Shown: piece by piece, positions 3,232-23,432 of the stretch
How positions within the stretch are numbered: position 1 is the stretch's first letter
Layout of the letters: each line of letters opens with the position of its first letter
Assembly (NCBI RefSeq): GCF_044338735.1
Contig: NZ_JBIIWV010000001.1
Location: 1-49,474, forward strand
From: Flavobacterium sp.
GTDB taxonomy: Bacteria > Bacteroidota > Bacteroidia > Flavobacteriales > Flavobacteriaceae
Direction of reading: 5' to 3'
Length of the DNA: 49,474 bases
Notes under the pieces: model-generated
Seen by the model: the letters and a program-made list of their open reading frames with translations, nothing else
Databases searched by the model: none
Told to the model about the DNA's origin: nothing
Made by a program: the position numbers and the translations under genes

Positions 3232-3258
3232 GTGTTCGATACTAATAATTATATGTTG

Positions 3259-3288: not shown

Positions 3289-3342
3289 CAGGGTGCTTAG
3301 ATTCCAATTATATTGAAAATTTCAATGGTTTAATAGTGACTT

Positions 3343-3376: not shown

Positions 3377-3380
3377 CGAA

Positions 3381-4210: not shown

Positions 4211-4240
4211 TTTGAAATATAAAAAATAAGAGTACTTTTG
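4211..4240 (+). promoter_or_regulatory. Probable promoter of the wHTH gene and downstream long operon
   Basis: TTTG 4211-4214 and TACTTTTG 4233-4240, 19 nt upstream of ATG 4260. Confidence 0.6.
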
Positions 4241-4259
4241 TTATTCAATCCAATTCTGC

Positions 4260-6134: not shown

Positions 6135-6425
6135 TTTGATAATTTGGCAATTTGAAGATTTGAAAATTCGTTGTTCAATATATTAAGAAGTGAAAAGTGA
6201 AAAGTGGCAAAGTAGCAAAGTAGCAAAGTGAAAAGTAGCAAAGTTCGCTCATTCCTTCATTCGCTAATCCGCTAATTAACTAATTCCAAAATCGTCACTT
6301 CGAGTGTTTTTTATAAAATTGCCCAAGCTATTTTGTAAAAAATGTATCGAGAACAACGGAAAATAATTATACAATTACACAATGTGCCAATTTGATAATG
6401 CGTCAATTTGAAAATTTGAACCTAT
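6135..6425. repeat. Intergenic micro-repeat mosaic
   Basis: 8-mers atttgata/atttggca/atttgaag/atttgaaa, 7-8-mers aagtgaa/aagtagca (6188-6244), ttcgctca/ttcgctaa, and aatgtgcc/aatttgat/aatgcgtc. Confidence 0.75.
6294..6353. repeat. REP-like imperfect palindrome (gtcacttcgag…tatcgagaa type)
   Basis: tcga…ttttttataaaat (6307-6319) pairs with attttgtaaaaaa (6330-6342)…tcga. Confidence 0.55.
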
Positions 6426-6722
6426 TTGCATCAGAATAAAACAAAGCTTAACTTAAAACAATTGATTAAAGATAAAATAATATACCAACCTAATCATCAT
6501 TTAGAATCATCTATAGAAGTATGGATTGAAGATGAAACCGTTTGGCTTACACAAGCTCAGATGGCACATCTTTTTGAGGCTACCAAACAAAATATTAGTC
6601 TTCATATTAATAATGTTTTTAAAGAAAAAGAACTTCAAGCCGATTCAGTTGTCAAGGAATACTTGACTACTGCTTCTGATGGAAAAAGGAGTCAAAGCCG
6701 AACAAAGCGCAGCAAAACCTGA
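6426..6722 (+). pseudogene. Truncated RhuM-family (virulence RhuM / Fic-associated) N-terminal fragment
   Basis: IIYQP…IEVWIEDETVWLTQAQMAHLF…KQNISLHINNVFKEKEL…SVVKEYLTTASDGK is the typical RhuM N-terminus. Similarity stops abruptly at about 6690, where the KxY…YYNLD continuation is missing. Confidence 0.75.
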
Positions 6723-6751
6723 AACATTAAACCTGAAACAAAAAAACTAAA

Positions 6752-7168
6752 ATGAAAAAAGCCATAATAGTCTCCGGATATTTCAACCCCATCCACAAAG
6801 GTCATATTGAATATTTCAACAATGCCAAAGCGTTAGGCAATTATCTTATTGTAATTGTCAACAACGACAAACAACGTGCTTTAAAAGGCAGTAAAGAATT
6901 TCAAAAAGAAGACGAGCGGGTATTTATCGTGTCCAACATTAAAAGTGTAGACCAAGTGTTTCTATCTATAGATGAAGACCGAACCGTTTGTGCCACCATA
7001 CAATTTATACACAAACAATTAAATAATGACTACCAATTGGCATTTGCTAATGGTGGCGACCAAAACAATAATTCCATACCCGAAGCACCAGTTTGTAAAA
7101 CATTGGGAATAACATTACTAGATGGGTTGGGCGATAAAATTCAATCGTCAAGTTGGTTGTTGAAATAA
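6752..7168 (+). CDS. Cytidylyltransferase (TagD/RfaE-domain-II-like, HIGH superfamily)
   Basis: VSGYFNPIHKGH HIGH motif, ANGGD and C-terminal KIQSSS. Confidence 0.85.
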   Translation: MKKAIIVSGYFNPIHKGHIEYFNNAKALGNYLIVIVNNDKQRALKGSKEFQKEDERVFIVSNIKSVDQVFLSIDEDRTVCATIQFIHKQLNNDYQLAFANGGDQNNNSIPEAPVCKTLGITLLDGLGDKIQSSSWLLK

Positions 7169-7190
7169 TAGACTAAATTAATTTCGTGAA

Positions 7191-8159
7191 ATGAGTAAAA
7201 TTTTAATAACAGGGGGAGCAGGTTTTATAGGGTCAAATCTTTGCGATTATTTTATTCAAAAAGAATTTAAAGTTGTCTGTTTAGATAATTTTGCAACAGG
7301 ACATTTGCATAATTTAGATTCTATTATAAATAATCCGAATTTCACATTGATTGAAGGAGATATAAGGAATATTGAAGATTGTCAAAAAGCAGTTGAGGGA
7401 GTTGATTATGTTCTACATCAAGCCGCTTTAGGTTCTGTACCTCGTTCTATAAATGACCCTGTTACAACAAACGATGTGAATGTTTCAGGATTTTTAAATA
7501 TGTTGACCGCCTCACGTGATGCTAAAGTTAAGCGTTTCATCTATGCTGCTAGCTCCTCAACTTATGGAGATTCGCAGGGATTGCCAAAGGTGGAAGACGT
7601 AATAGGTAAACCTCTTTCTCCATATGCCATCACCAAATATGTAAATGAATTGTACGCTGAAATTTTTAGTAAAACGTATGGGATTGAGACTATAGGACTA
7701 CGTTATTTCAATGTATTTGGTCGCAAACAAGATCCAAATGGAGCATATGCCGCAGTAATACCTAAATTTGTTATGCAGTTTATGAACTATGAAAGCCCTG
7801 TGATTAATGGAGATGGAAATTACTCTAGAGATTTCACTTATATAGACAATGTTATTCAAATGAATGAATTGGCTATGTTAACTGAAAATCCTGAAGCTGT
7901 AAATACAGTTTACAATACGGCTTTTGGAGACAGAACAACCCTTACTCAATTAGTCCAATTATTAAAAGATAATTTGGCGCAGTTTGACCCAAAAATTGCT
8001 GAGGTGGAGGTAATATATGGACCTAATAGAGCGGGAGATATCCCTCATTCTTTAGCCAGTATTGAAAAAGCTAAAAATAACTTAGAATACAATCCTAAAT
8101 TCTCAATAGAAGCTGGAATTAAAGAAGCGGTTTCTTGGTACTTTCATAATTTAAAGTAA
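7191..8159 (+). CDS. wbpP: UDP-GlcNAc(A) 4-epimerase (WbpP/TviC family)
   Basis: GGAGFIGS, HQAALGSVPRSINDP, SSSTYGD, PLSPYAITK and QDPNGAYAAVIPK, all characteristic of WbpP/TviC. Confidence 0.88.
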   Translation: MSKILITGGAGFIGSNLCDYFIQKEFKVVCLDNFATGHLHNLDSIINNPNFTLIEGDIRNIEDCQKAVEGVDYVLHQAALGSVPRSINDPVTTNDVNVSGFLNMLTASRDAKVKRFIYAASSSTYGDSQGLPKVEDVIGKPLSPYAITKYVNELYAEIFSKTYGIETIGLRYFNVFGRKQDPNGAYAAVIPKFVMQFMNYESPVINGDGNYSRDFTYIDNVIQMNELAMLTENPEAVNTVYNTAFGDRTTLTQLVQLLKDNLAQFDPKIAEVEVIYGPNRAGDIPHSLASIEKAKNNLEYNPKFSIEAGIKEAVSWYFHNLK

Positions 8160-8228
8160 ATAGCAGTTGTTGGTTTTGGTTACATAGGTTTGCTTATAGC
8201 GGGTTTATTTGCCACAAAAAATAATTAA
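8160..8228 (+). pseudogene. 5' remnant of a nucleotide-sugar dehydrogenase (WbpO/TviB-like)
   Basis: Directly after the wbpP stop the DNA reads IAVVGFGYIGLLIAGLFATKNN*. This aligns with IGIIGLGYVGLPLSVAFAEK at the start of the intact gene at 19568. No start codon. Confidence 0.7.
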
Positions 8229-8403
8229 TATTTGTACTTTTATTTTTTTAATTATTACACGTTTTTTAGAGTTTTTAATATTGAAAATCTAAACTTCATA
8301 TAAGTGAGTTGTAAATTTCAAAAAATCAATTAACAAAAATGTAGTATTTATGTATACACAGTATTTCTTTTAGTGAATAGATAAATAATTTATTAAATAT
8401 ATT

Positions 8404-9438
8404 TTGAAACAATATACTTTAACTATTCAAGAAATCCATAAAGAAACGGAGGATACCATTACGCTTTGTTTCAAACAGCCGGGTTTACGAAAAATAAAAT
8501 ACCAAGCGGGGCAATACATTACTTTAATTTTAAGAATTAATGGAAGAAAATATGCTCGCCCTTATTCTTTTTCATCAGCACCATCAGTAGATGCCGCTTT
8601 ACAGGCAACCGTAAAAAGAGTACCTAACGGAATCGTTTCTAATTATATTAACGAAGAATTGAAAGCCGGGGATGTAGTTGAAGTTATGGAGCCGATGGGT
8701 GATTTTATTTATAATGCAATAAATCCAGAAACAGAAATATACTTATGGGGTGTTGGAAGTGGAATTACTCCGTTGTATTCTCTTACTAAAGAAATATTGA
8801 ACACTCAGCCCAATACTAAAATTCATTTAGTATATGGTAATAAATATAAGACCTCAACTATATTTTTGGATCAATTGGTTCAGCTACAAGAAAAGTATAA
8901 TTCTAATTTCAAATTATCAAATTTTTATAGTCAAGAGGATACAATAGATGAAAAAGAAGGATTTAAGGGAAGAATTTCTTCTAGTTTTGTATCTGATCTG
9001 GTATCTAAAAATATCAATTGCAAAGAAAGTCTACATTTCATTTGTGGGCCAAGTGGTTTAAAAGAAACGGTTAAAAACGCATTGATTAATTTATCTGTTC
9101 CGTTATCAGCTATACTTACTGAAGAATTCGAAATGGTTATTGACCCGAAAGAGTTCTATGATGTTGAAGATTCAAAAGTAATTATCGATTTTCAAGGGCA
9201 ACAATCAGAAATTTTTGTTCCAAAAGGCAAAAGTGTTTTAGATGTTGCTTTAGATAATAATATAGAGATACCTTATTCATGTCAAACAGGGAATTGCAAT
9301 ACCTGTAAAGCAAAATTAAAAGAAGGACAGTTAAAAATGTTGGGATTAACAAAAGAAAGAGAAGATTTAGCGCAAGACGATTTTTTGCTATGTTGCAGTT
9401 ATCCCTTGACTAACAATATTAGTTTAGAAGTAATTTAA
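8404..9438 (+). CDS. FAD/NAD oxidoreductase with C-terminal [2Fe-2S]; probable E3 (AscD/DdhD/RfbI-equivalent) reductase
   Basis: RPYSFSS FAD motif, GSGITP NAD motif, ICGP, and a C-terminal ferredoxin CQTGNCNTC…LLCC. It lies immediately upstream of rfbF/rfbG. Confidence 0.8.
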   Translation: MKQYTLTIQEIHKETEDTITLCFKQPGLRKIKYQAGQYITLILRINGRKYARPYSFSSAPSVDAALQATVKRVPNGIVSNYINEELKAGDVVEVMEPMGDFIYNAINPETEIYLWGVGSGITPLYSLTKEILNTQPNTKIHLVYGNKYKTSTIFLDQLVQLQEKYNSNFKLSNFYSQEDTIDEKEGFKGRISSSFVSDLVSKNINCKESLHFICGPSGLKETVKNALINLSVPLSAILTEEFEMVIDPKEFYDVEDSKVIIDFQGQQSEIFVPKGKSVLDVALDNNIEIPYSCQTGNCNTCKAKLKEGQLKMLGLTKEREDLAQDDFLLCCSYPLTNNISLEVI

Positions 9439-9449
9439 GAAGTATAAAA

Positions 9450-10226
9450 ATGAAAGTAGTAATTTTTGCAGGTGGTTTTGGTACACGTTTAATGGAGGAA
9501 ACTGAAGCCAGGCCTAAGCCAATGGTGGAAATTGGGGGCAAACCCATTTTATGGCATATTCTTAAAATGTATGAACATTTTGGATACAATGATTTTATTA
9601 TTTGTTTAGGCTACAAAGCAACCTATATTAAAGAATATTTTTACAATTATTACCTACACAATTCAGACGTAACAATTGAATTAGCAAATAATAACATAAA
9701 GGTTCATTATACAGAATCGGAGTCATTTAAAATCACGTTGATTGACACGGGTTTGAATACCAATACAGCAGGACGCTTGAAACGCGTACAAAAATATGTA
9801 AAAGACGAAACATTTATGTTAACCTATGGTGATGGAGTTGCCAATGTTAATTTTAACGAATTGCTCGCGTTTCATAAAGCCCATGGACGATTAGCAACAT
9901 TGACAAGTGTTCAAATACCGGGCCGTTTTGGAAATTTAGAAATTAACACAGCCGGTGAAGTAGGTACTTTTGTTGAAAAACCAGTAGGTGATGGGATGTG
10001 GATAAATGGAGGTTTTTTTGTTTTAGAACCAGGGATATTTAAATATTTAGATGGTGAGATGGACGATATTCAATGGGAAAAAGGACCTTTGGAAGTTATT
10101 GCTGCAGATAATCAGTTATCAGCATACAAGCATAACGGTTTTTGGAAATGTATGGATGCATTGAGAGACCGTGTTGAATTAGAAGAAATGTGGAACTCGG
10201 ATAACGCACAATGGAAAACGTGGTAA
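9450..10226 (+). CDS. rfbF: Glucose-1-phosphate cytidylyltransferase
   Basis: AGGFGTRLMEET…PKPMVEIGGKPILWHI, TAGRLKRV, LTYGDGV, WINGGFFV and FWKCMD. Confidence 0.95.
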   Translation: MKVVIFAGGFGTRLMEETEARPKPMVEIGGKPILWHILKMYEHFGYNDFIICLGYKATYIKEYFYNYYLHNSDVTIELANNNIKVHYTESESFKITLIDTGLNTNTAGRLKRVQKYVKDETFMLTYGDGVANVNFNELLAFHKAHGRLATLTSVQIPGRFGNLEINTAGEVGTFVEKPVGDGMWINGGFFVLEPGIFKYLDGEMDDIQWEKGPLEVIAADNQLSAYKHNGFWKCMDALRDRVELEEMWNSDNAQWKTW

Positions 10227-11302
10227 ATTTTCAGCAATTAGAAAACACTTATAAAGGAAAAAAAGTCTTCTTAACCGGGCATACTGGTTTTAAAGGGGCT
10301 TGGCTTTTAAAGACGTTGTCTTTATTAGGCGCAGAAATCAAAGGCTATGCTTTAGAGCCACATACCCCGAATGATTTATTTAATTTGATTGAGGGCGAAC
10401 AATTATGCCACTCTGTTATTGCGGATTTGAGAGATAAGAAAAGATTGGAATCTGAAATAGTTGCTTTTCAACCCGATTTTATTTTTCATTTGGCGGCACA
10501 ACCTTTGGTTCGGTTGTCTTATCAGATTCCAGCCGAAACTTTTGAAGTAAATGTAATCGGTACGGCAAATGTTTTGGATGGGGTTAATTTATTAAAAAAA
10601 AAATGTAGTGTAGTTTTGATTACTACAGATAAAGTGTATCATAACAATGAATGGGATTATCCATATCGTGAAAATGATAAGTTAGGTGGTTACGATCCGT
10701 ACAGCGCCAGTAAAGCCTGTGCAGAATTATTGATAGATTCCTATCGTAATTCGTTTTTTAATTTTGTAAACTATAACAAACATTTAAAGGGCATTGCCGT
10801 GGCTCGTGCAGGAAATGTTATTGGAGGAGGAGATTGGTCGAAAGACAGATTAATTCCTGATATTGTTCGTTCATTGATGGTCGATAAAACGGTCGTTATT
10901 CGAAATCCGAATGCCATTCGCCCTTGGCAGCATGTATTGGAGCCCGTTATTGGATACTTAAGTTTAGGTATGCATCTTGAAAATCAACCTGTTGAATTTG
11001 GGCAGGCTTATAATTTTGGTCCAGAATCAGAAGATGCATTGTCAGTAGAAGAAATGGTTAAACTAGCCACAGCTTCTTGGGGTTCTGGAGAATATCAAGT
11101 TGAACACGATGAAAGCCAGCCACACGAGGCAGGTATGCTAAAATTAGATATCACAAAAGCCAAATTAAAGCTGAACTGGTTGCCTAAAATGAATGCCAAA
11201 CAAGCAGTAAACTTAACTATTGATTGGTATAGTATGTTTAGTTTAGACAAAAACAAAATAAATGATTTTACTACATTACAAATACACAATTTTATAACAT
11301 AA
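10211..11302 (+). CDS. rfbG: CDP-glucose 4,6-dehydratase
   Basis: TGHTGFKGAWL, HLAAQPLVR, TTDKVY, DPYSASK, RAGNVIGGGDW and RPWQHVLEP. Confidence 0.95.
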   Translation: MENVVNFQQLENTYKGKKVFLTGHTGFKGAWLLKTLSLLGAEIKGYALEPHTPNDLFNLIEGEQLCHSVIADLRDKKRLESEIVAFQPDFIFHLAAQPLVRLSYQIPAETFEVNVIGTANVLDGVNLLKKKCSVVLITTDKVYHNNEWDYPYRENDKLGGYDPYSASKACAELLIDSYRNSFFNFVNYNKHLKGIAVARAGNVIGGGDWSKDRLIPDIVRSLMVDKTVVIRNPNAIRPWQHVLEPVIGYLSLGMHLENQPVEFGQAYNFGPESEDALSVEEMVKLATASWGSGEYQVEHDESQPHEAGMLKLDITKAKLKLNWLPKMNAKQAVNLTIDWYSMFSLDKNKINDFTTLQIHNFIT

Positions 11303-11304
11303 AT

Positions 11305-12357
11305 ATGAACTCAAATACTATAATTAAGGAAGATTTGAGAACTATTTTTAATTCAGATATTGATTGGTCAAAATTCTTTAATAAAACGATTTTAATATCT
11401 GGAGCTAATGGCTTTCTGCCTGCTTATTTGGTAGAAACTTTATTGTATTTAAATTTTGTAAATCCATCAAATAATGTAAAAGTTGTTGCCTTGGTGAGAA
11501 GTATAGATAATGCTAAAATCAGATTTAAAGCTTATTCCGAAAATCCAAATTTAATATTTATTGTTCAAGATGTTTCAAATCCAATTCAACTTAGCACAAA
11601 AATAGATTTTATAATTCATGCAGCAAGTCAAGCAAGCCCAAAATACTATGGGATAGATCCTGTAGGAACATTAAGTGCTAATGTTTTAGGGACATTTAAT
11701 TTACTTAAACTAGCTAGAGAAAATAAAGTTGAATCATTTTTATTTTTTAGTTCTGGAGAAGTTTATGGCGAGCTTGATGTAAGTCAAATTCCAATTGATG
11801 AAAATACTTTTGGCTATGTAAATCCAACCAATGTAAGATCTTGTTATGCCGAAAGTAAGAGAATGGGAGAAAACATATGCGTTAGTTATCATCATCAGTT
11901 TGATGTTCCAATTAAAATTGTTAGACCTTTTCATACTTATGGACCAGGAATGAAGTTAGATGATGGACGTGTTTATGCAGATTTTGTATCAGACATTTTA
12001 AATAACCAAAATATTTGTATGCATAGTGATGGTGCTGCCGTAAGGGCTTTTTGCTATTTGTCAGACGCAACCATTGCATTTATTAAAGTTCTTTTAGAAG
12101 GGAAAAATGGCGAAGCATATAATGTAGGTAATCCAGAGGAAGAATATAGCGTTTTAAAATTAGCTAACATATTAGTTGATTTGTATCCCCACAAAAAATT
12201 ACAAGTAATTAAAAAAGTTATCAATAATAGTAACAATTATTTAAAGAGTCCGTTAAAAAGCAACTCGCCAAATATTACTAAAATTAGAGAACTAAATTGG
12301 CGTCCTTTGGTTGCGGTACAAGAAGGTTTTAAAAGGACTATAGAAAGTTATAAATAA
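11305..12357 (+). CDS. NAD-dependent epimerase/reductase (extended SDR), candidate YerF-like ketoreductase
   Basis: GANGFLP nucleotide-binding variant, HAASQASP, SSGEVYG and CYAESK (YxxxK). Confidence 0.82.
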   Translation: MNSNTIIKEDLRTIFNSDIDWSKFFNKTILISGANGFLPAYLVETLLYLNFVNPSNNVKVVALVRSIDNAKIRFKAYSENPNLIFIVQDVSNPIQLSTKIDFIIHAASQASPKYYGIDPVGTLSANVLGTFNLLKLARENKVESFLFFSSGEVYGELDVSQIPIDENTFGYVNPTNVRSCYAESKRMGENICVSYHHQFDVPIKIVRPFHTYGPGMKLDDGRVYADFVSDILNNQNICMHSDGAAVRAFCYLSDATIAFIKVLLEGKNGEAYNVGNPEEEYSVLKLANILVDLYPHKKLQVIKKVINNSNNYLKSPLKSNSPNITKIRELNWRPLVAVQEGFKRTIESYK

Positions 12358-12362
12358 ATAGT

Positions 12363-14189
12363 ATGAAAGTTTCAGATTTAATAGCAGATTTTTTAGAAGA
12401 AAAAGAAATAAAACACGTTTTTGGAATTATAGGGGCAGGTAACGCTCATATTTTTGATTCCATACAGAAAAAAGGGTATACTGAAATCATTTGTGTACAT
12501 CATGAACAAGCTGCCTGTATGGCGATGCAAACGTATTACAGAACAAATGGTAAAGTAACCGCAGCTATACTTACAACAGGTGCTGGATCTACAAATGGAA
12601 TTACAGGAGTTGTTAGTGCTTGGGCAGATTCAATTCCGGGAATTATTATTTCTGGAAATGAACATTCAAAATTTGTTGATTCACACAAAAATCTTCGGAT
12701 GTGGGGTGTTCAAGGATATGATAGTCCAGCTATGGTTGAAAAAGTTACCAAATATGCGACACAAGCATTAAACCCTAATTTGGTTATATATGAGTTAGAA
12801 AAGGCTTATGCGATAGCTGCACACGGACGACCTGGACCATGTTGGGTTGATATACCATTGAATTTACAATCTACAAATGTTTCCTCAAACGATTTGTTGC
12901 GTTTTAATAGTTCAGAGTTACCTGATTTAAATTTGAACTCCGATGAAGAATTAACAAATAACATAGAATCCATTTTGGAAGGATTGAAAAAAGCAAAACG
13001 TCCTCTGTTTTGGTTTGGAAATGGTATAAGATTAGCAAATGCAGAACAATTATTGGAGCCCTTATTGGAGAAATTTAATGTTCCTTCACTAGTTACATGG
13101 GCAGGTATAGACTCAATTGACTCCCATCACGCATTGGTTTATGGACGAGCTGGAACCTATGGGCAACGCTGCGCTAATTTTATACTTCAGAATTGTGACC
13201 TATTGATTTGTATTGGAACCAGAATGGCAATTTCTCAGATAGGATATGATATAAGCGAATTAGCACGTGATGCAGATATTGCCGTTGTAGATATTGATAA
13301 ATATGAATTAGATAAATATAAAGAAAGATATAAGTTCTCAATAAATGCCGATGCCAAAGATTTTATAAGTGGGTTATTGAATATTAATTTGAATCAATCT
13401 TTAGATTATTCGAGTTGGATTGAAATTTGCAATAAATATAAATTAGATTATCCTTGGGTAAATGATTTAGATCATCCTGATAAAGATGGATTTATTAATT
13501 CATATAAATTTATGGAAAAATTAAATTCACATTTAAAAGAAGATCAACATATAACCACAGATATGGGGACAGCACTTTTAAGCGGACATCAAGTGCTGAA
13601 AATTGGCAAGAAACAAAGATTGATGACGTCCACGGGATTAGGTGAGATGGGGTATGGTTTGCCTGCTGCTATTGGTTCCTCGATTGCAAGAGGGAAAGGC
13701 GAGGTAATGTGTTTAAATTGTGATGGAGGTATGATGATGAATCTTCAAGAACTACAAACCATAGTGCATTATAAACTGCCTATTAAGTTATTTATTTTTA
13801 ATAACGATGGTTATTTAATGATTAAACACACACAAAATGCCCTTTTTAATGGAAGAAGAGCCGGTGTTGATAGTAATTCTGGAGTAACTTGTCCTAATTT
13901 TAGTTCATTAGCTGTAGCTTTCGGAATTCCTTCATTTCAAATTAGAACTTGGGAAGATTTTGAAAATATAATTCCTCAGGTTCAAGAAATAAATGGCCCA
14001 GTAATTTGTGAAGTATTTATGCATCCCAACCAATTATTTGTTCCAAAATTAGGGTTGGCGATTCAAAGTGATGGGAGTTTAATATCTCCTCCTTTAGAAG
14101 ATTTATCTCCATTTATTTCAAGAGAACAATTGAAAGAAAATATGTTAAACGGATTGCATCCTAAGTCAGTTGCGATTGAATCTAAATAA
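12363..14189 (+). CDS. ThDP-dependent acetolactate-synthase-like carboligase (YerE/ErwE-like sugar-branching enzyme)
   Basis: Catalytic Glu in HHEQAA, GRPGPCWVDIP, and ThDP motif variant CDGG…NNDGY. It is embedded among CDP-sugar genes with no ilvN/ilvC. Confidence 0.85.
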   Translation: MKVSDLIADFLEEKEIKHVFGIIGAGNAHIFDSIQKKGYTEIICVHHEQAACMAMQTYYRTNGKVTAAILTTGAGSTNGITGVVSAWADSIPGIIISGNEHSKFVDSHKNLRMWGVQGYDSPAMVEKVTKYATQALNPNLVIYELEKAYAIAAHGRPGPCWVDIPLNLQSTNVSSNDLLRFNSSELPDLNLNSDEELTNNIESILEGLKKAKRPLFWFGNGIRLANAEQLLEPLLEKFNVPSLVTWAGIDSIDSHHALVYGRAGTYGQRCANFILQNCDLLICIGTRMAISQIGYDISELARDADIAVVDIDKYELDKYKERYKFSINADAKDFISGLLNINLNQSLDYSSWIEICNKYKLDYPWVNDLDHPDKDGFINSYKFMEKLNSHLKEDQHITTDMGTALLSGHQVLKIGKKQRLMTSTGLGEMGYGLPAAIGSSIARGKGEVMCLNCDGGMMMNLQELQTIVHYKLPIKLFIFNNDGYLMIKHTQNALFNGRRAGVDSNSGVTCPNFSSLAVAFGIPSFQIRTWEDFENIIPQVQEINGPVICEVFMHPNQLFVPKLGLAIQSDGSLISPPLEDLSPFISREQLKENMLNGLHPKSVAIESK

Positions 14190-14198
14190 ATTATAAAA

Positions 14199-15074
14199 AT
14201 GAAAAAACTTAGAGTAGCAATATTAGGAAGTGGAAATATAGGGACTGATTTATTAATAAAAACGCAACGTTCCGAATTCTTAGAATGTGTCTTGTTTATT
14301 GGAAGAAACTTATCTTCTCCGGGTATGGCTAAAGCCATTGCGATGGGAGTTAAGGTTTCAGATGAAAGTATAAATGCAATAGTTAAAAACTCAGATTTAA
14401 TTGATTTAGTTTTTGATGCTACATCTGCTAAAGACGCTAAAATTCATTGGGATATTATAGATAAATTAGGAAAGATAGTTGTAGATATGACTCCTGCTAA
14501 AATTGGAGTATTTTGTATTCCAGCTGTTAATTTAGATGAAGTTTTAGAGTACAGAAATGTAAATATGATTACTTGTGGTGGTCAGGCATCAATTCCTATT
14601 GCCCATGTAATTGGTAAAACACAAAAAAACGTAAAATATATCGAAGTAGTTTCTAGTATTGCTTCCAGAAGTGCTGGGCCGGCCACTAGACTAAATTTAG
14701 ATGAATATGTAGATACAACAGAAAATGCTATTAAACATTTTTCTAATGTTCCAAGAACAAAAGCAATTTTAAATTTGAATCCTGCTAATCCATGTATAGA
14801 TATGCAGACTACCATCTTTGCGCAAGTTGAAAATCCAGATATGGATTATCTACAAAAAGAGATTGACGTAATGATAAAAAAAATACAAGAATATGTGCCC
14901 GGATATAGTTTATTGGTTCCGCCAGTTTTTGAAAATGGAAGAATAGTTATTATGGTTAAAGCACAAGGGTTAGGCGACTATTTGCCGAAATATGCAGGTA
15001 ATTTGGATATTATAAATTGTGCAGCAATTGCAGTTGCAGAACAATATTCAAAAAAAATTTCAAACATAAAATAA
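14199..15074 (+). CDS. mhpF: Acetaldehyde dehydrogenase (acylating), DmpF/MhpF family
   Basis: AILGSGNIGTDLL, FDATSA, DMTPA, NVNMITCGGQA (catalytic Cys), SRSAGPATR and GDYLPKYAGNLDI. Confidence 0.93.
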   Translation: MKKLRVAILGSGNIGTDLLIKTQRSEFLECVLFIGRNLSSPGMAKAIAMGVKVSDESINAIVKNSDLIDLVFDATSAKDAKIHWDIIDKLGKIVVDMTPAKIGVFCIPAVNLDEVLEYRNVNMITCGGQASIPIAHVIGKTQKNVKYIEVVSSIASRSAGPATRLNLDEYVDTTENAIKHFSNVPRTKAILNLNPANPCIDMQTTIFAQVENPDMDYLQKEIDVMIKKIQEYVPGYSLLVPPVFENGRIVIMVKAQGLGDYLPKYAGNLDIINCAAIAVAEQYSKKISNIK

Positions 15075-15080
15075 AACACC

Positions 15081-16091
15081 ATGATTAAACAAATATTAAT
15101 AACTGATTCTACATTACGTGATGGCAATCATGCTTGTGCACATCAATTGAGTATTGAACAGATTGCTATTTATGCAGCGGCAGCGGATAAGGCAGGTGTT
15201 CCAATTGTGGAGGTTGGTCACGGTAATGGTTTAGGAGCCTCTTCACTTCAAGTTGGTCTTAGCAAAGAAACAGATAAAGACATGCTTGAAACCGCTCGAA
15301 AGCATCTTAGTAAAAGTAAGCTAGGAATTCACGTAATTCCAGGGTTTGCTACCATAAAGAGAGATTTGGTTAACGCTATCGATATTGGAGTTGATGTAAT
15401 TAGAGTAGCATCACATTGTACGGAAGCCGATATTACACAACGTCATTTAGGATATGTGAGAGAAAGAGGTAAAGAAGCATTCGGTGTGTTAATGATGAGT
15501 CATATGGCATCTGCAGAAGTTTTAGTTGAAGAAGCCCAAAAAATGGAACTTTATGGAGCAGAAGGAATAATAATTATGGATTCAGCAGGGGCATATTTGC
15601 CTTCGGACGTACAAGAAAAAATATCGGCTTTAGTGAACGGGCTAAAAGTTCCTGTAGGTTTCCATGCACACAATAATCTTGGGATGGCTATAGCCAATTC
15701 TATAATGGCAATTGAATCAGGAGCAAAAATGCTTGATGCAACCGCTAGAGGTTTTGGAGCTGGAGCTGGAAACGCACAAATTGAAGTTTTGGTTGCTGTT
15801 TTAGAAAAAATGGATTATGTAACGGGTATAGATTTGTTTAAAATTCTTGATGCATCTGATGTAGCGGAGGAAAAAGTTGTTACTACTGTTCCAATCATTA
15901 AATCAGACAGTATCGTTAGTGGATTATCAGGCGTTTTTTCTGGTTTTTCAAAACACGTTACAAGAATTTCAAGTGAATATGAAGTAGATTCAAGGGATGT
16001 TTACCGTGAGCTGGGAAAAAGAAAAATTGTCGCAGGTCAGGAAGATATTATTATAGAGGTTGTAATGGATTTAATAAGAAATCGTAAATAA
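15081..16091 (+). CDS. dmpG: 4-hydroxy-2-oxovalerate aldolase, DmpG/MhpE family
   Basis: DSTLRDGNH, EVGHGNGLGASS, SHCTEAD, MMSH, HAHNNLG metal site and C-terminal VAGQEDII communication domain. Confidence 0.93.
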   Translation: MIKQILITDSTLRDGNHACAHQLSIEQIAIYAAAADKAGVPIVEVGHGNGLGASSLQVGLSKETDKDMLETARKHLSKSKLGIHVIPGFATIKRDLVNAIDIGVDVIRVASHCTEADITQRHLGYVRERGKEAFGVLMMSHMASAEVLVEEAQKMELYGAEGIIIMDSAGAYLPSDVQEKISALVNGLKVPVGFHAHNNLGMAIANSIMAIESGAKMLDATARGFGAGAGNAQIEVLVAVLEKMDYVTGIDLFKILDASDVAEEKVVTTVPIIKSDSIVSGLSGVFSGFSKHVTRISSEYEVDSRDVYRELGKRKIVAGQEDIIIEVVMDLIRNRK

Positions 16092-17146
16092 TGAGTTCAG
16101 CTAAAAATAAAATTGTCTTTGATGACTGTAAAAAGTCATGTGTAGAAATCGAGTGTTTTTCAGTTTTAAACGGTAAATCAATTCTAGTTACAGGTGGAAC
16201 GGGCTTTATTGGTAAATGGATTTCAGAAATGGTATCTTATATAAATTACACTAGCAATCTAAATATAAAACTATATTTATTAGGTCGAAATATTGTTAAG
16301 TTTAAAGAAGAAGTTCCTCACTTGGCAGAAAAATCTTTTATTAATTTAATAGAGCAAGATGTGCGGTATCTACACGATTTACCAAGTGATGTAAATTATG
16401 TTATACATGCAGCAGGTTCACCAGACAGTAGGGAACATGTTTCTGATCCATTGAAAACAATTGAAACATTTTATAAAGGAACACAATCTTTATTAGATTC
16501 AGCTTCACGAATTCAGGATTTAATAAAAATAGTGCATTTAAGTTCACATCAAGTTTACGGAAAAAATGAAACGGAACAACTATTAACCGAAAATTCTTTT
16601 GGATCTTTTGAAGCGCTTAATGTATCTAATTGTTACGCCGAGTCTAAAAGAATAGCAGAAACTTTATGTTCTTATTTTAAAAACAATTTAAGGTTACCTA
16701 TAATTATTTTAAGACCATTTGCTTTTATAGGACCATATCAAGATATTGAAAAACCATGGGCAATTAATAGCTTTATTCGAGACGCTATTTTGGGAGGCCC
16801 GATTCGAATTTTAGGAAATGGGATGACAGAAAGAAGTTATCTTTATGCAAGCGATATGGCATATTGTATTTTAAAATCATTAATTGATGGTAAAATTGGG
16901 GAAATTTATAATCTAGGAAGTAATACTCCAATATCTTTAAATGATTTAGCTTTTAAGATAAAAAATCATTCGCCTTCTGAAATAGAAGTACTCTCTAAAT
17001 CATCAAAAGAAAATTATTTAAGTGTTTCTAAATTAGTGCCAAATACTGATAAAATTAATAAAGAATTTAATTTTAAAGAAATATTTACAATTGATGAAGC
17101 TATATCTAGAACTATTTTATGGAATAAATTATTAAAATCTGAATAA
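16091..17146 (+). CDS. NAD-dependent epimerase/reductase (extended SDR), second copy
   Basis: GGTGFIG, SSHQVYG, CYAESK and RPFAFIGP. Confidence 0.82.
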   Translation: MSSAKNKIVFDDCKKSCVEIECFSVLNGKSILVTGGTGFIGKWISEMVSYINYTSNLNIKLYLLGRNIVKFKEEVPHLAEKSFINLIEQDVRYLHDLPSDVNYVIHAAGSPDSREHVSDPLKTIETFYKGTQSLLDSASRIQDLIKIVHLSSHQVYGKNETEQLLTENSFGSFEALNVSNCYAESKRIAETLCSYFKNNLRLPIIILRPFAFIGPYQDIEKPWAINSFIRDAILGGPIRILGNGMTERSYLYASDMAYCILKSLIDGKIGEIYNLGSNTPISLNDLAFKIKNHSPSEIEVLSKSSKENYLSVSKLVPNTDKINKEFNFKEIFTIDEAISRTILWNKLLKSE

Positions 17147-17161
17147 TAAAATTTAAAAAAT

Positions 17162-18100
17162 ATGAACATAAAAGAAACAAAAATTAAATTTAAAAAAAAC
17201 GAAATAAATAAAATTGAATTTGTGAATTCAATGCATAATTTACATAGTGTGCTTTTTGATTTTTCTGAAAATTTGAGAAATACAGAAATTTCAAAAATAG
17301 AGATTGAAGACGGACAAGTTATTTTTACATCGCGAAAAACTGAATTACATCCTGGTGGAGCAAAATTTTATATAGATGTTTTAGATAAGCGCATTACACC
17401 TGTAGAGGCATTTAACTTTAATATGTATGAACAGGAAGATTCAGAAATGCTTTATAAATTAGTAGATAGTGATGATGTTATTTTTGATATTGGCGCAAAT
17501 ATTGGTTGGTATTCAAATCACTTATCTAAAAAAAACCCAAATAGTGTAATTTATGCTTTTGAACCTATTCCAGAAACTTTTAATAAGGTAAAGAGAAATA
17601 CAGAATTAAACAAAGTTAATAATATTCATTTAAATAATGTTGCGTTATCTAACAAAATTGAAACACTAACTTTTTTTTATTCACCAAATGTAACAGGCGC
17701 GTCTTCTTCTATAAATATTACTGAGAATGAAAACATGCTGAAATTAGAATGTCAAACCAATACAATTGACAACTTTATTAAAGAGAAAAATATTTCTAAA
17801 CTTGATTTTATAAAATGTGATGTTGAAGGCGCAGAGCTAATGGTATTTTTGGGCGGCGAAGAGAGCATAAACAAATATAAACCTATTGTATTTTCTGAGA
17901 TGTTACGAAAATGGGCGGCAAAATTCGGATACCATCCAAATGAAATTATAACTTTCTTTGATAAGTTAGGATATAAATGCTATGTCAACAAAAATCATAA
18001 ACTAAAACTTATAGAAAAAATAGATGAAGACACTGTGGAAACAAATTTCTTTTTCTTACACCCTATTAAGCATGCAGATAAAATAAAAAAATTAGGTTAA
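17162..18100 (+). CDS. FkbM-family SAM-dependent methyltransferase
   Basis: [18 protein letters not shown] and IKCDVEGAE. Confidence 0.9.
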
Positions 18101-18101
18101 T

Positions 18102-19403
18102 ATGCTAGTAAATTTAACAGACGCCAATCTTTTAACTAGTTTAAGAGAAATCGCAAAAAAAAATTCGAGCAAAGATATAATTGCTGGAGAAAATTACATA
18201 CCCGTTACAGGAAAAGTATTGGATGAAGAAGATATTTTGATGGGAGTAGAAGCCGCTTTAGACGGTTGGTTAACAGCAGGTCGTTTTGCTAATAAATTTG
18301 AGCATGATTTTGCCCAATATTTTGGAGTACACAAAGCGTTATTAGTTAACTCAGGATCATCTGCTAATTTGGTTGCTTTCTATGCATTAACATCACCTAA
18401 ATTAGGCGAAAGAGCCATTCAGCCTGGAGATGAGGTAATTACTGTAGCCGCTGGTTTTCCTACTACTGTTAATCCCATTATTCAATACGGAGCAATCCCA
18501 GTATTTATTGATGTAGATATTGCTACTCACAATGTAAAAGTTGAGATGATAGAGGCGGCAGTTAGTCCAAAAACAAAAGCGATAATGATAGCACACTCAT
18601 TAGGAAATCCTTTTAATTTAGATGAGGTAATGCGTGTTGCTAAAAAGTATAATCTTTGGGTAGTAGAAGATGACTGTGATTCTTTAGGCGCTACCTACAG
18701 AGGACAAAAAACAGGAACTTTTGGCGATATAGCTACTTTTTCATTTTATCCTGCCCACCACATCACTATGGGAGAAGGAGGAGCCGTTTTAATTAATAAT
18801 CCAATCCTAGCTAAAATTGCCGAGAGTTTCCGTGATTGGGGACGTGATTGCTATTGCGAACCCGGTAAAGACGATACTTGTGGTTGTCGTTTTGGGCAAC
18901 AATTAGGTACTTTACCTTATGGTTATGATCATAAATATACCTATTCTCATATTGGGTTTAATTTAAAAGTAACCGATATGCAAGCCGCTTTTGGGCTTTC
19001 TCAAATTAGTAAAATTGATGCTTTTGTAAAAAAACGTAAAGAAAATTTCGATATTTTATATAATAAAATGAAAGAATTTGAAGATGTGTTTATTCTGCCT
19101 GAAGTTACAGAACATGCTGAACCATCTTGGTTTGGTTTCCTGTTAACTTTACGCGATGGTGATGCAAATGATAGACATATGCTAGTGCAGCACTTAGAAA
19201 AAAACAAAATAGGAACTCGTTTATTATTTGGAGGTAATATATTAAGACAACCTGCTTATGCTAATATAAAACACCGAGTAGTTGGTGATTTATCGAACAC
19301 AGATACAATTATGAACCAATCTTTTTGGTTGGGAGTTTGGCCAGGTTTAAATGAGTCCCATTATGATTATATTTTAAAAGTAATAAGAGAATATCTAAAT
19401 TAA
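18102..19403 (+). CDS. rfbH: CDP-4-keto-6-deoxy-D-glucose 3-dehydrase (E1; RfbH/DdhC/AscC)
   Basis: DegT-fold with [14 protein letters not shown] (His replacing the PLP lysine), Fe-S cysteines in RDWGRDCYC…TCGCRF, and [10 protein letters not shown]. Confidence 0.95.
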
Positions 19404-19567: not shown

Positions 19568-20854
19568 ATGAATAAAATTGAAAAAAAAATCGGAATAATA
19601 GGACTTGGTTATGTTGGTCTTCCATTGTCTGTGGCATTTGCCGAAAAATATAAAGTTATAGGCTTTGACATAAATTCTTTGAGAATAAATGAATTAAATT
19701 CTGGCCATGATAGCACACTTGAAATCCAAGACGATTTTTTGAAATCAGTTTTAGATACAGATAATTTTAAAGAAATTGGGTTACACATAACCACAAAAAA
19801 AGAAATATTAAACGATTGTAATGTTTATATAGTTACAGTACCTACACCCACCGACAAGCATAATCGTCCCGTTTTGTCTCCGCTAATTAAGGCAAGTGAA
19901 ACAATTGCAGAGTTTCTCAAAAAAGGAGATATTGTAATTTATGAATCAACAGTATATCCTGGTGTAACTGAAGACGAAATGGTTCCAGTACTTGAAAAAA
20001 TTAGTGGATTAGTTTATAATGTTGATTTTTTTTGTGGGTATTCACCAGAGCGAATTAATCCAGGCGATAAAGAGCATACCGTAACCAATATACTAAAAGT
20101 TACAAGTGGCTCTACTCCAGAAATTGCAAATGTAATTGATGAATTATATAAATCAGTAATAACAGCAGGGACATTTAAAGCTTCTAGTATAAAAGTAGCA
20201 GAAGCCGCCAAAGTAATTGAAAACAGTCAACGAGACATCAATATTGCATTTGTTAACGAACTTAGTAAGATTTTCAATTTAATTGGGATTGATACACATG
20301 AGGTATTGGAAGCAGCAAGTACTAAATGGAATTTTATCAACTTTAAACCTGGTTTAGTGGGCGGACATTGTATTGGTGTTGATCCTTACTACTTAGCTCA
20401 AAAAGCTCAAGAAGTTGGATATCATCCCGAAATCATATTAGCTGGAAGAAGGATTAATGATTCGATGGGGAAATATGTGGCTACTGAAGTTTTAAAACTA
20501 ATGACACGCCAAAACACAAATGACACAAAACGTAAAGTTTTATTGCTTGGCTTTACATTTAAAGAAGATTGTCCAGACATTCGTAATACCCGAGTTATTG
20601 ATATTTACAACGAGTTAGTAGACCTAAATATTCAAGTTGATATTTATGACCCGTGGGCCGATGCTGCACAAGTAAAGCGCACGTATGATATAGATATTAA
20701 AAATAAAAAACCTTCTGAAAAATATACCGCGGTAGTTTTAGCAGTAGCACATAAATTGTTTTTAGACATGGATTTACGTTCTCTAACCCCTCAAGGAATT
20801 GTGTATGATGTAAAAGGCGTGCTTCCAAAAAGCAGTATAGATTCAAGATTATAA
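19568..20854 (+). CDS. wbpO: UDP-N-acetylhexosamine 6-dehydrogenase (WbpO/TviB)
   Basis: GLGYVGLP, YESTVYPG, YSPERINPGD, AEAAKVIENSQRD, PGLVGGHCIGVDPYYL and FKEDCPDIRN. Confidence 0.9.
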   Translation: MNKIEKKIGIIGLGYVGLPLSVAFAEKYKVIGFDINSLRINELNSGHDSTLEIQDDFLKSVLDTDNFKEIGLHITTKKEILNDCNVYIVTVPTPTDKHNRPVLSPLIKASETIAEFLKKGDIVIYESTVYPGVTEDEMVPVLEKISGLVYNVDFFCGYSPERINPGDKEHTVTNILKVTSGSTPEIANVIDELYKSVITAGTFKASSIKVAEAAKVIENSQRDINIAFVNELSKIFNLIGIDTHEVLEAASTKWNFINFKPGLVGGHCIGVDPYYLAQKAQEVGYHPEIILAGRRINDSMGKYVATEVLKLMTRQNTNDTKRKVLLLGFTFKEDCPDIRNTRVIDIYNELVDLNIQVDIYDPWADAAQVKRTYDIDIKNKKPSEKYTAVVLAVAHKLFLDMDLRSLTPQGIVYDVKGVLPKSSIDSRL

Positions 20855-20961
20855 TACTCAAAAAAATAGTAGAATTAAAGGTTATTTTATTACCCTCTTC
20901 TACTAGTAAATTTCAACCTTATATTATTTTATAATAGTAATTATTTTTTAAAAGCATTTAA

Positions 20962-21984
20962 ATGAGTTTTATAGTATCTATATGCATTCCCACTTTTAAC
21001 CGTAGTCTCAATATCAATAATTTATTACAGCAATTGCATGAATTGGTGAAAGTAAACAGGCATGACATAGAAATATGTATTTCCGATAATTGTTCAACTG
21101 ATGATACCAGTGAAGTAATTAAAAAGTGGGACAGTTTGTTTACTATTAATTCGATAAGGCAACCCTATAATAAAGGAGGTACTGCGAATGTTAAGGAAGT
21201 AGTTAAACTTGCTAAAGGCAAATATACGCTCCTTATCGGAGATGACGACGGCATTGATGTTAATCAATTTAGCTCTTTAATTGAGCAACTTAAAATAGAA
21301 GAAGATTTTTTCTGGAATATTGGTATTTCTAAAAATGATAACAGTAAAGATTGTTTTAATTTGTCTAATGTTGGAACGTATGATAAAATTCAATTTAGTA
21401 CTATTTTAGAAAAAAAAGGCCTAATTTCTCTAGGTTTTATAGGAAAGCATATAGTACCAACTTTTCTAGTACAAAAAATGTCTGAACTAGAAACAGATAA
21501 AATTATCCCTTGGCCACATTTGCACCTTTTTTTTTCAACTTATAATTCTTTACCAACAAGAATTGTTCCTTTTTCATTTTATAATCAGGCTGTTCATGGC
21601 ACACAATTGTATTGGGACTCTAAGGAAGGCCTTGAAATTATCCTTGCATTTCAAAAAATATTTTCTTCTGAATACATAAATTCTGACTACAAACCCCTTA
21701 GATTAAAAGAAGTAACAAGATTTTATTTATTTCTTGGTTTTTTAAAGCATTTTTTATTAGACACTAAAGATTTTAGGAGTTTTGCAGTTTTAAACTTTCG
21801 TAAGGTTTTAAAACCCGGAGACAATTATAAGTTGAAAATTATAATTTTTATAAAAACATTGCAATTTCTTTCTTTAACTTCTCCAATTTTATCTCCAACG
21901 TTTAAATATCTCAACGTGGTAAAGAAACACAAAAAAATTAAAACAGCAAATCCAGAAAAGTTTGCATTTAAAAGAGGCATTTAA
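20962..21984 (+). CDS. GT2 glycosyltransferase, candidate CDP-dideoxy/branched-sugar transferase
   Basis: SICIPTFNR, ISDNCSTDDT and LIGDDD; the motif style matches abequosyltransferase-like GT2s. Confidence 0.85.
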   Translation: MSFIVSICIPTFNRSLNINNLLQQLHELVKVNRHDIEICISDNCSTDDTSEVIKKWDSLFTINSIRQPYNKGGTANVKEVVKLAKGKYTLLIGDDDGIDVNQFSSLIEQLKIEEDFFWNIGISKNDNSKDCFNLSNVGTYDKIQFSTILEKKGLISLGFIGKHIVPTFLVQKMSELETDKIIPWPHLHLFFSTYNSLPTRIVPFSFYNQAVHGTQLYWDSKEGLEIILAFQKIFSSEYINSDYKPLRLKEVTRFYLFLGFLKHFLLDTKDFRSFAVLNFRKVLKPGDNYKLKIIIFIKTLQFLSLTSPILSPTFKYLNVVKKHKKIKTANPEKFAFKRGI

Positions 21985-21995
21985 CAGTATATAAT

Positions 21996-23294
21996 TTGAA
22001 CTTTATAAATTTTTTAAGCAATAAAAACACATTAGTTGTTTTTATCTATAGATTAACCACCGTGTTTTCTGGATTGATAGTATTGTTTATTGTTACTAAT
22101 TTGTTTGAAATTAAAGAGCAAGGACAATATTATTTAATTTTAAGTTTGGTTGCTTTACAATCTTTTGTTGATTTAGGAATTATTCCCGTAATGAGCAATG
22201 TAATATTAAGGGATTGGACAGAGTATAAGAATACCGTTTCTGACCATTTACAAAGTAACAAAATTTCTAAAATTAGAGGCTATTTTTATTTTTTTTTAAA
22301 ATGGTATTCAATTCTTAGTTTTATATTACTTTTTATTTCAGTAATTTTTTCATTAAATTTTAGAGAAGATAGTCAATTATTTAATCTGCTAATTTCTATA
22401 TCTTTTATTGTTGTTTTAAATTTTTTTCTTAATTTATTTTGGTTGTTTCTTGAAGGAATAGGTGATTTTTATAACTTATACTTGTTTAGAACAATTCAGC
22501 TTTTATTTTCAACTGGTTGTCTGTTCTTTTTTATCACTTGTGATTTTGGAATACATTCCCTTTTATTTTTTTATTCATCCCTTTTTTTTTCAAGTGTAAT
22601 TTTTATATTTTTCAAGTGGAGGACTTTTAAATTTTTAATCTTTGGTGAGAGAATTATTTTTCAATATTTTAAGGAGATTTTTCCTTTTCATTTTAATGTA
22701 TTTATTCAATCCCTTTTTGGTTATTTTACTTGGCAAGCATTGATTCCATTGTTTTACGATAAAACGGGAGCTTTGTTTTCTGGAAAATTAGGAGTAACGC
22801 TTCAAATAGCAGCATTGTTTCTTTCGTTTTCTACTTTCTTAGTGTATTCAAAGTCTCCAATTTATTCTAAACTATTATTTTCAAAAAGTCATCACGATGT
22901 TTTGAATATTTGGAAGAAAGATTTAATAACATCTTATTTAATTTTTATATTTTTAATTCTTATTTATTTATTTTTATTTTATATGGATGTCTCGCTATTT
23001 AGACCATTTTTCAATCGTAGTTTAAATGTTACAAATAGTTTTTTAATTTTTATAATCCATTTCTTTTACGTTTTTAATCATTCTATATCTGTACTTAGTA
23101 GATTAAATAAAAAAGAACTGCTTACTGTTAGCGGTGTATTTGTCCCAATTTTATCATATGCAATAGTGTATTTTTGTATAGATTTATTTTCATTAGATAT
23201 CATTTTTGTAATGTTGTTGTTCTTAAACTCTTTATTTTTCATATATAATTACTTAAAATTCAAAAAATTCAAATCAGATTTTAAATCTATTTGA
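21996..23294 (+). CDS. wzx: O-unit flippase
   Basis: About 12 hydrophobic segments, EQGQYYLILSLVALQSFVDLG N-terminal MOP motif, very AT-rich. Confidence 0.8.
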   Translation: MNFINFLSNKNTLVVFIYRLTTVFSGLIVLFIVTNLFEIKEQGQYYLILSLVALQSFVDLGIIPVMSNVILRDWTEYKNTVSDHLQSNKISKIRGYFYFFLKWYSILSFILLFISVIFSLNFREDSQLFNLLISISFIVVLNFFLNLFWLFLEGIGDFYNLYLFRTIQLLFSTGCLFFFITCDFGIHSLLFFYSSLFFSSVIFIFFKWRTFKFLIFGERIIFQYFKEIFPFHFNVFIQSLFGYFTWQALIPLFYDKTGALFSGKLGVTLQIAALFLSFSTFLVYSKSPIYSKLLFSKSHHDVLNIWKKDLITSYLIFIFLILIYLFLFYMDVSLFRPFFNRSLNVTNSFLIFIIHFFYVFNHSISVLSRLNKKELLTVSGVFVPILSYAIVYFCIDLFSLDIIFVMLLFLNSLFFIYNYLKFKKFKSDFKSI

Positions 23295-23432
23295 TAAGCT
23301 CTAAGAAAATTATTGATAAATACTTTTATAAACGTTTAACTGTCTTAAAGTTGTTAAACTGTCCTAGAAACAAACAAAAAACATCTGTTAAAATAGTCAC
23401 ATCATTATTCTTTTAAAATTAAAATCATTAGC

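Follow-up and report, generated by a model that had tools for sequence, protein, structure and literature searches.

Introduction

The closest described counterpart of the gene cassette analyzed here, which occupies positions 8404–19403 of a 49,474-nucleotide stretch of Flavobacterium sp. DNA (NCBI RefSeq assembly GCF_044338735.1, contig NZ_JBIIWV010000001.1, positions 1 to 49,474; hereafter the window), is the route to erwiniose proposed for Pectobacterium atrosepticum SCRI1043. In this route, ErwJ supplies acetaldehyde, ErwI forms 4-hydroxy-2-oxopentanoate, ErwE performs the C4 transfer, and ErwF the reduction (Steitz 2022, PMC9306805). The carboligation by ErwE was shown in vitro on a model ketone, with pyruvate being rejected, while the gene content of the cluster was the basis for assigning ErwI, ErwJ, and ErwF to their steps (PMC9306805). 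A first-pass annotation of the window had pointed to this precedent, and the same logic is indeed what Steitz et al. proposed for ErwE/F/I/J.

Three further systems bear on the cassette. The thiamine diphosphate (ThDP)-dependent enzyme JanthE from Janthinobacterium sp. HH01 accepts pyruvate, longer keto acids, and, with benzaldehyde, 4-hydroxy-2-oxovalerate (PMC12188165). In yersiniose biosynthesis, it is YerF that decides between yersiniose A and B and sets the branch stereocentre (PMC5399914). Finally, the catabolic aldolase BphI is (4S)-only as the wild-type enzyme; the Y290F substitution alone abolishes this control and yields both enantiomers, and the L87N/Y290F and L87W/Y290F variants are (4R)-selective (PMC3962088).

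Gene Content and Proposed Pathway

Taking family assignments and co-occurrence counts together, from which the direction of the reactions, the donor, the stereochemistry, the roles of the reductases, and the methylation are deduced, we consider it quite probable that the cassette produces a CDP-3,6-dideoxy-4-C-(1,3-dihydroxybutyl)-hexose whose C3' centre is (R)-derived, and which is probably O-methylated and transferred by a GT2 enzyme (encoded at 20962) into a Wzx-type surface polysaccharide. The pathway type is one that is already known, and the presence of aromatic-catabolism enzymes in a sugar cluster is thereby explained. As judged by its gene content, the cassette works like the erwiniose pathway, but its carboligase does not behave as an ErwE orthologue in our comparisons, and hence we describe it as a variant of that pathway.

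The cassette comprises ten open reading frames (ORFs), all on the plus strand, with nine intergenic gaps of –16 to +15 bases, such that the tightly coupled ten-gene run initially described is real. The genes are listed below, with NCBIfam scores given relative to the curated cut-offs of the respective models (score/cut-off):

8404..9438, plus strand: FAD/NAD/[2Fe-2S] reductase with FAD-, NAD-, and C-terminal Fer2 Pfam domains, likely the E3 partner of RfbH
9450..10226, plus strand: RfbF, glucose-1-phosphate cytidylyltransferase (TIGR02623, 386/300)
10211..11302, plus strand: RfbG, CDP-glucose 4,6-dehydratase (TIGR02622, 466/278)
11305..12357, plus strand: SDR1, a short-chain dehydrogenase/reductase (SDR; PF01370), likely reducing the C1' carbonyl of the branch with NADPH, in the role of YerF/ErwF, as judged by its slot, its motifs, and its match to PDB 8v4g
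12363..14189, plus strand: JanthE-type ThDP carboligase with all three TPP domains and a CDG motif (C453)
14199..15074, plus strand: DmpF/ErwJ-type acylating acetaldehyde dehydrogenase (TIGR03215, 376/282)
15081..16091, plus strand: DmpG/ErwI-type pyruvate aldolase with His84 and Phe286, predicted to be (4R)-selective (TIGR03217, 384/286; alignment to 1nvm)
16091..17146, plus strand: SDR2 (PF01370), regularly found together with dmpG, its NADPH reductase motif apparently intact
17162..18100, plus strand: FkbM-family S-adenosylmethionine (SAM) methyltransferase, likely O-methylating the branched sugar (TIGR01444, 112/38; PF05050)
18102..19403, plus strand: RfbH/E1, C3 dehydrase (NF011936, 705/423), with FYPAHH and Cys motifs, which are interpreted here in line with work on AscC

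The gene set for CDP-4-keto-3,6-dideoxyglucose is thus complete, with rfbF, rfbG, and rfbH assigned by curated cut-offs and the reductase by its domains and position. RfbF, RfbG, RfbH, and the reductase would provide this sugar by chemistry that is established at the family level. DmpF would convert acetyl-CoA to acetaldehyde, from which DmpG would form (4R)-4-hydroxy-2-oxovalerate with pyruvate. The JanthE-type enzyme would then decarboxylate this donor, pulling the reversible steps forward, and place a 3-hydroxybutanoyl unit onto C4, for which comparable reactions of ErwE, and of JanthE on benzaldehyde, provide a precedent. SDR1 would reduce the resulting C1' ketone with NADPH, setting its configuration, and FkbM would methylate a hydroxyl group of the SDR1 product. 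The predicted outcome is an O-methylated sugar with the erwiniose skeleton.

Distribution of the Cassette

To place these assignments in context, we collected 217 relatives of the ThDP enzyme from species-representative genomes and fetched the best 80 loci; these include close kin and are not independent, and no P value is attached to the counts. All 80 of these JanthE-type loci contain dmpF, with dmpG present in 78, SDR2 in 74, and rfbH in 66. Many of the loci end at contig ends, as do both of those that lack dmpG. Because the cassette recurs in 80 loci from many phyla, its arrangement is not due to chance. For comparison, we found eight YerE-type clusters without a JanthE-type gene (seven among 400 Pseudomonas genomes, and one among 400 genomes of the class), and both dmpFG and SDR2 are missing from all eight. 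A survey by Krug in 2024 reportedly covered more than 200 YerE-like clusters. Plasmids gave no JanthE-type match, but only four matches at ~29% identity, two of which are annotated as ilvG, and there was likewise no JanthE-type match in the E. coli genomes searched.

The nearest named carriers are Flavobacterium isolates (L001, L004, L005, and L011), whose ThDP enzyme, DmpF, and DmpG are 83–95% identical to those of the window. The gene set is therefore not unique to the genome studied here. Among 400 other genomes of the genus, three have dmpG (90–92% identical), in each case within this cassette. Such a patchy and rare occurrence is what would be expected of serotype genes.

The putative E3 reductase has the domain order FNR-Fer2 (PaaE-like) and precedes rfbF in 17/80 loci, all from Bacteroidota, while a Fer2-first reductase (F26) occupies the same position in eight other loci, from Pseudomonadota. 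From this domain order, the Bacteroidota E3 looks like an independent recruitment. A 34% identical paralogue of the window reductase is found on contig C120 of the assembly.

The ThDP-Dependent Carboligase and Its Probable Donor

The best solved relative of the window ThDP enzyme is PDB 8rph (E 7e-243), and it shares 59% identity over 606 residues with JanthE (HH01 protein P0168), in comparison to 31% with ErwE (WP_011093010.1 = P0382 = CAG74336.1) and ~30% with a YerE-type enzyme. P0168 carries the residues named for JanthE (V121, Y268, P293, Y297, and K567), of which V121, Y268, Y297, and K567 are kept in the window enzyme, with P293 being replaced by Ser. The CDG motif is present in 81/81 aligned sequences (C453-D-G in the window), whereas ErwE has GDG. 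By all of these sequence measures, the window carboligase is of the JanthE type and not an ErwE orthologue. The initial idea that DmpFG runs biosynthetically to feed this enzyme matches the scheme of Steitz 2022, and the 61% identity of DmpG to ErwI is in line with it; the part that has to be revised is the identity of the carboligase, as YerE and ErwE, the reference points chosen at the time, are both far more distant than JanthE.

The natural donor of JanthE is probably 4-hydroxy-2-oxovalerate, for three reasons. The linkage to dmpF holds in 80/80 JanthE-type loci, compared to 0/8 in the other YerE-type clusters. Furthermore, in HH01 itself, an aldolase of the same His/Phe type as that of the window (see below) lies three accessions away from janthE (ELX11383/ELX11386). 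Finally, in a locus of the same genus (L116, genome G099), an ErwE-type enzyme (45% identical to ErwE) and an HpcH-like gene stand in place of the JanthE-type gene, with DmpF, DmpG, SDR2, RfbF, and RfbH remaining 85–94% identical to those of the window; that is, a carboligase of the ErwE type has been swapped in, and the rest of the cassette has been kept.

We note that an HpcH/HpaI-family aldolase gene adjoins the ErwE-type ThDP gene in four loci (L116, at 6003–8521, L128, L134, and L033), and that the only one of the 80 JanthE-type loci to contain such a gene is L033, which has both carboligase types. A second aldol step, or a longer branch, is a possible role for this gene beside DmpG. Separately, in four Pseudomonas-type loci (L043, L050, L121, and L123), a YerE-type ThDP gene stands next to a JanthE-type one, together with a single SDR. 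This arrangement suggests that one locus gives rise to both C2- and C4-branched sugars, with different donors.

Stereocontrol Residues of the DmpG Aldolase

Aligned to the DmpG structure 1nvm, the window DmpG retains the fold together with the catalytic Arg, Asp, and three His residues. The positions of BphI Leu87 and Tyr290, by contrast with the catabolic enzymes, are occupied by His84 and Phe286. The same His/Phe pair is found in 78/78 full-length cassette aldolases (the window and 77 of the 80 loci, two others being cut off and one broken), and in 139/139 close homologues, including ErwI (CAG74339.1) and the HH01 enzyme, although this latter set was picked for closeness and is not independent. 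Leu/Tyr is found in 8/8 catabolic copies, which were hand-picked from 349 plasmid records with their context checked, and in one copy of unclear context, while the Tyr is missing from each of four additional plasmid copies that do not belong to a clear meta-cleavage operon. Identity to ErwI, which is encoded three accessions after ErwE (CAG74336.1), amounts to 61% for the window DmpG, in comparison to ~37–46% for catabolic-type plasmid homologues. The phylogenetic comparison with catabolic DmpFG that had been suggested at the outset agrees with this division, as a quick tree (calculated with no bootstrap) splits cassette from catabolic DmpG with an SH-like approximate likelihood ratio test (SH-aLRT) support of 100.

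We therefore predict that His84 and Phe286 direct the window enzyme toward (4R)-4-hydroxy-2-oxovalerate, the opposite hand to that produced by catabolic BphI. The His/Phe signature resembles that of the engineered (4R)-selective BphI variants, fits with the reported preference of ErwE for the (R) donor (Steitz 2022, PMC9306805), and would give a reason for the cassette to keep an aldolase of its own. The position of BphI Leu89, which is associated with aldehyde length (PMC3962088), is Ile or Met in 78/78 cassette aldolases, and in none of them a smaller residue.

As a side observation, dmpFG also occurs on a Phaeobacter plasmid (L085), two Streptomyces plasmids (L086 and L098), and a Paraburkholderia plasmid (L096), in ATP-grasp/aminotransferase, nonribosomal peptide synthetase, or ThDP contexts. 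These aldolases are 52–56% identical to the window DmpG, and thus nearer to it than the catabolic ones, lack Tyr290, and group toward the cassette copies in the quick tree; they are probably other biosynthetic uses of the pair.

The literature that we searched, which mostly did not include subscription sources, contained no publication that links an ErwI-type aldolase to the BphI stereocontrol residues (the BphI mutant papers found predate Steitz 2022), none on yersiniose in a Flavobacterium O-polysaccharide, and, besides the erwiniose work, none that ties a 4-hydroxy-2-oxovalerate aldolase to O-antigen and CDP-glucose, or an acetaldehyde dehydrogenase to rfbH and the O-antigen of Pectobacterium.

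Reductases and Methyltransferases

In a quick tree calculated from 37 selected rows, SDR1 and SDR2 group into different families. Each of them has Ser-Ser, YxxxK, and an Arg at the position of Arg56 in PDB 8v4g, an NADPH-dependent CDP-fructose reductase in which this residue binds NADP(H) (PMC10918830). SDR1 matches this structure with E 6e-36. The position held by SDR1 is an exchangeable slot: exactly one of four SDR families is present in 72/80 loci, with two in one locus and none in seven (SDR1 in 34, SDR3 in 20, F16 in 17, and F80 in 3). In the YerE clusters without dmpFG, F16 follows yerE in 7/7 Pseudomonas clusters and SDR3 is found with it in the eighth, and these are the sole slot-type SDRs there. 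Because of this exchangeability, the association of F16 and SDR3 with yerE, and the role of YerF, SDR1 is likely the C1' reductase, and its product may be a C1' epimer of erwiniose. The best PDB score for SDR1 was to a UDP-glucuronate decarboxylase, an assignment that we rejected by deduction from an Arg rather than an Asp at the cofactor-specificity site and from the YerF-like slot.

SDR2 travels with dmpG in 74/80 loci, and is present in ErwE-type loci as well (L127 and L128 carry F16 and SDR2). It is missing from three complete Pseudomonas cassettes, with no orthologue in the two of those genomes that were searched. SDR2 is probably a second NADPH reductase that is specific to the C4-branch route.

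FkbM, for which the structure search returned no informative solved relative, occurs only with SDR1, in 16/16 of the loci that have it and across several phyla. In a parallel pairing, a TIGR04371 putative sugar O-methyltransferase occurs only with F16, in 6/6 loci (L046, L051, L058, L061, L066, and L068). These pairings suggest that methylation depends on the product of the reductase. Cultured environmental carriers differ in their slot genes, with SDR3 in F. aquidurense and F. hercynium, SDR1 but no FkbM in F. undicola, and both SDR1 and FkbM in Mucilaginibacter agri. The extra SDR and the methyltransferase had at first been thought to mark a new variant; this does not apply to SDR2, which is a standard component of the cassette and is also present in ErwE-type clusters; the components that vary between loci are SDR1 and its FkbM partner.

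Alternative Explanations

Several points weigh against the pathway proposed above. On the side of the aldolase, His is not among the substitutions described for BphI position 87 in the review consulted (Ala, Asn, and Trp; PMC3962088), and Y290F alone leads to both enantiomers. On the side of the carboligase, the physiological substrates of JanthE are stated to be unidentified, the enzyme, unlike ErwE, takes pyruvate and several other donors, and its reaction with 4-hydroxy-2-oxovalerate was reported on benzaldehyde rather than on a ketone (PMC12188165), while ErwE itself converts a C6 donor better than a C5 donor (76% vs 49%, PMC9306805). In addition, the SDR1 slot is empty in 7/80 loci, SDR2 is missing from three complete Pseudomonas loci, and the cassette encodes two reductases for one obvious ketone. 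Since JanthE also accepts pyruvate, some C2-branched byproduct is possible, and since ErwE favors the C6 donor, a propionyl-derived branch is chemically possible.

If pyruvate were in fact the main donor, the JanthE-type enzyme would give a C2-branched, yersiniose-type sugar, alone or in a mixture, and each SDR could reduce one branch length; the slot families F16 and SDR3 are, after all, the partners of YerE in clusters without dmpFG. We consider this quite unlikely, as dmpF would be needless for a pyruvate-only route and yet is present in 80/80 JanthE-type loci, the ErwE-type loci L127 and L128, whose enzyme type rejects pyruvate, likewise carry F16 and SDR2, and the four loci that keep a separate YerE-type gene suggest different donors for the two enzymes. 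It is also unlikely that a sugar with a C4-type branch differs from erwiniose by more than its methylation, whether through a C5 branch derived from propionyl-CoA, which would suit the good conversion of 4-hydroxy-2-oxohexanoate by ErwE (PMC9306805), or through SDR2 acting as an epimerase or forming a second dideoxyhexose by reduction of the 4-keto sugar that has no branch, which would give this conserved protein with intact motifs the step that it otherwise lacks. The Ile or Met at the Leu89 position in 78/78 cassette aldolases argues against such variants, as does the shared His/Phe signature of ErwI, which comes from the genome of a known erwiniose producer, and the NADP(H)-binding Arg of both SDRs would fit reductases better than NAD+-cycling epimerases.

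A catabolic or acetaldehyde-scavenging DmpFG that lies in a glycan locus by coincidence is highly improbable, even though the NCBIfam names of dmpF and dmpG come from catabolic enzymes. The first-pass annotation had noted the lack of ring-cleavage and hydratase genes in the ten-gene run, and there is no ring-cleavage dioxygenase or hydratase among the 29 window ORFs scanned with Pfam and NCBIfam; in the assembly as a whole (2.2 Mb; completeness 87%, contamination 6%), nothing matched the DmpE hydratase model, and the catechol 2,3-dioxygenase model had one weak match far below its cut-off, such that no upstream catabolic genes were found. Furthermore, the dmpFG linkage holds across many phyla, the stereocontrol residues differ, the quick tree separates the two groups, and all three dmpG genes in the 400 genomes of the same genus lie in this cassette. 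We thus retain the C4-branched, erwiniose-type pathway as the preferred explanation.

Surrounding Polysaccharide Locus

The cassette lies within a Wzx/Wzz-type polysaccharide locus with UpxY (3381), a Wzz-like gene (5070), glycosyltransferases, and a PglC/D/E/F-like end. These PglC/D/E/F-like labels are a reading of the domains present, and the TviB/TviC-like genes score below their cut-offs. Two genes downstream are of relevance to the fate of the branched sugar:

20962..21984, plus strand: GT2 glycosyltransferase (PF00535), candidate for attachment of the branched sugar
21996..23294, plus strand: putative Wzx-like flippase, with no Pfam match and 23% identity to multipass membrane proteins encoded behind the cassette in relatives

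GT2 genes related to that at 20962 come after the cassette in many loci. Upstream, in the region 940–4766, the minus-strand gene at 940–3261 encodes a product 36–45% identical to the long protein whose plus-strand gene lies ahead of wzz in relatives. Next come UpxY (3381) and a small protein without a Pfam match (4260), and the locus seems to have been rearranged at its 5' end. The region 19568–39558 contains a TviB-like dehydrogenase, two asparagine-synthase-like amidotransferases (27781 and 30553), a GINT1_N-domain protein (24595), a weak transglutaminase-like match (29758), and the PglC/D/E/F-like set, a combination that points to uronic acids in amidated form and to a starter sugar of the bacillosamine type. 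Further downstream, 39801–44099 encodes a 1432-residue protein that combines a lamin-tail domain with a C-terminal domain for type IX secretion, and there is no ORF of at least 100 residues between 44099 and 47899.

Implications

By the two-residue rule, biosynthetic DmpG can be told apart from its catabolic counterpart, and an aldolase with (4R) selectivity is predicted to occur in nature, such selectivity having been described to date for engineered BphI (PMC3962088). Annotations that take cassette dmpFG as a sign of aromatic degradation would be wrong. The cassette also points to a likely physiological donor for JanthE, a structurally solved biocatalyst, and, by the gene-content rule, cultured strains of Flavobacterium, Pedobacter, and Mucilaginibacter are predicted to have new stereochemical and methylation variants of this rare C10 sugar. 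More tentatively, and with somewhat less than even confidence, we suggest that the cassette exposes at once the reaction that the JanthE family carries out in nature, a natural clade of pyruvate aldolases with (4R) selectivity that are altered at the two positions at which BphI was later engineered, and a set of swappable reductase and methyltransferase modules (SDR1–FkbM, F16–TIGR04371, and SDR3 alone) by which a single C10 skeleton is turned into several epimeric and O-methylated sugars, as yet undescribed, in many phyla, including a methyl-(epi)erwiniose here.

Comparison with Known Systems

The catabolic DmpFG, BphIJ, and MhpEF enzymes share with the window pair the fold and the catalytic Arg, Asp, and three His residues, but differ in that the window has Leu87 replaced by His and Tyr290 by Phe, no meta-cleavage context, and a separate branch in the quick tree. 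The yersiniose module (YerE/YerF of Yersinia pseudotuberculosis O:6; PpYerE, PDB 5ahk) has the same acceptor sugar and the same logic of carboligation followed by reduction; unlike in that module, the window ThDP enzyme is only ~30% identical to the YerE type, and dmpFG and SDR2 are present. Rhodopseudomonas palustris CGA009 has a cluster for a methylated C6-branched sugar, with an aldolase that is 58% identical to an aldolase/citrate-lyase-family enzyme of M. marinum (PMC9306805, Scheme 4), and resembles the window in being a branched-sugar cluster with a putative SAM methyltransferase and an O-methylated sugar, but differs in the C6 branch.

JanthE of HH01 (PDB 8rph) is the closest relative of the carboligase, with 59% identity, the CDG motif, four of the five named active-site residues, and a His/Phe aldolase nearby, the differences being the Ser in place of P293 and a window context that points to 4-hydroxy-2-oxovalerate. 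In its overall content, the cassette is most like the erwiniose cluster, with which it shares the CDP-3,6-dideoxy-4-keto sugar genes, the DmpF/DmpG pair (61% to ErwI, with His/Phe), a ThDP carboligase, and an SDR. It departs from that cluster in its carboligase (31% to ErwE, CDG rather than GDG) and in the addition of the FkbM methyltransferase, and may also do so in its slot reductase: in the ErwE-type loci L127 and L128, the gene at the ErwF position is of the F16 family, whereas the window has SDR1.

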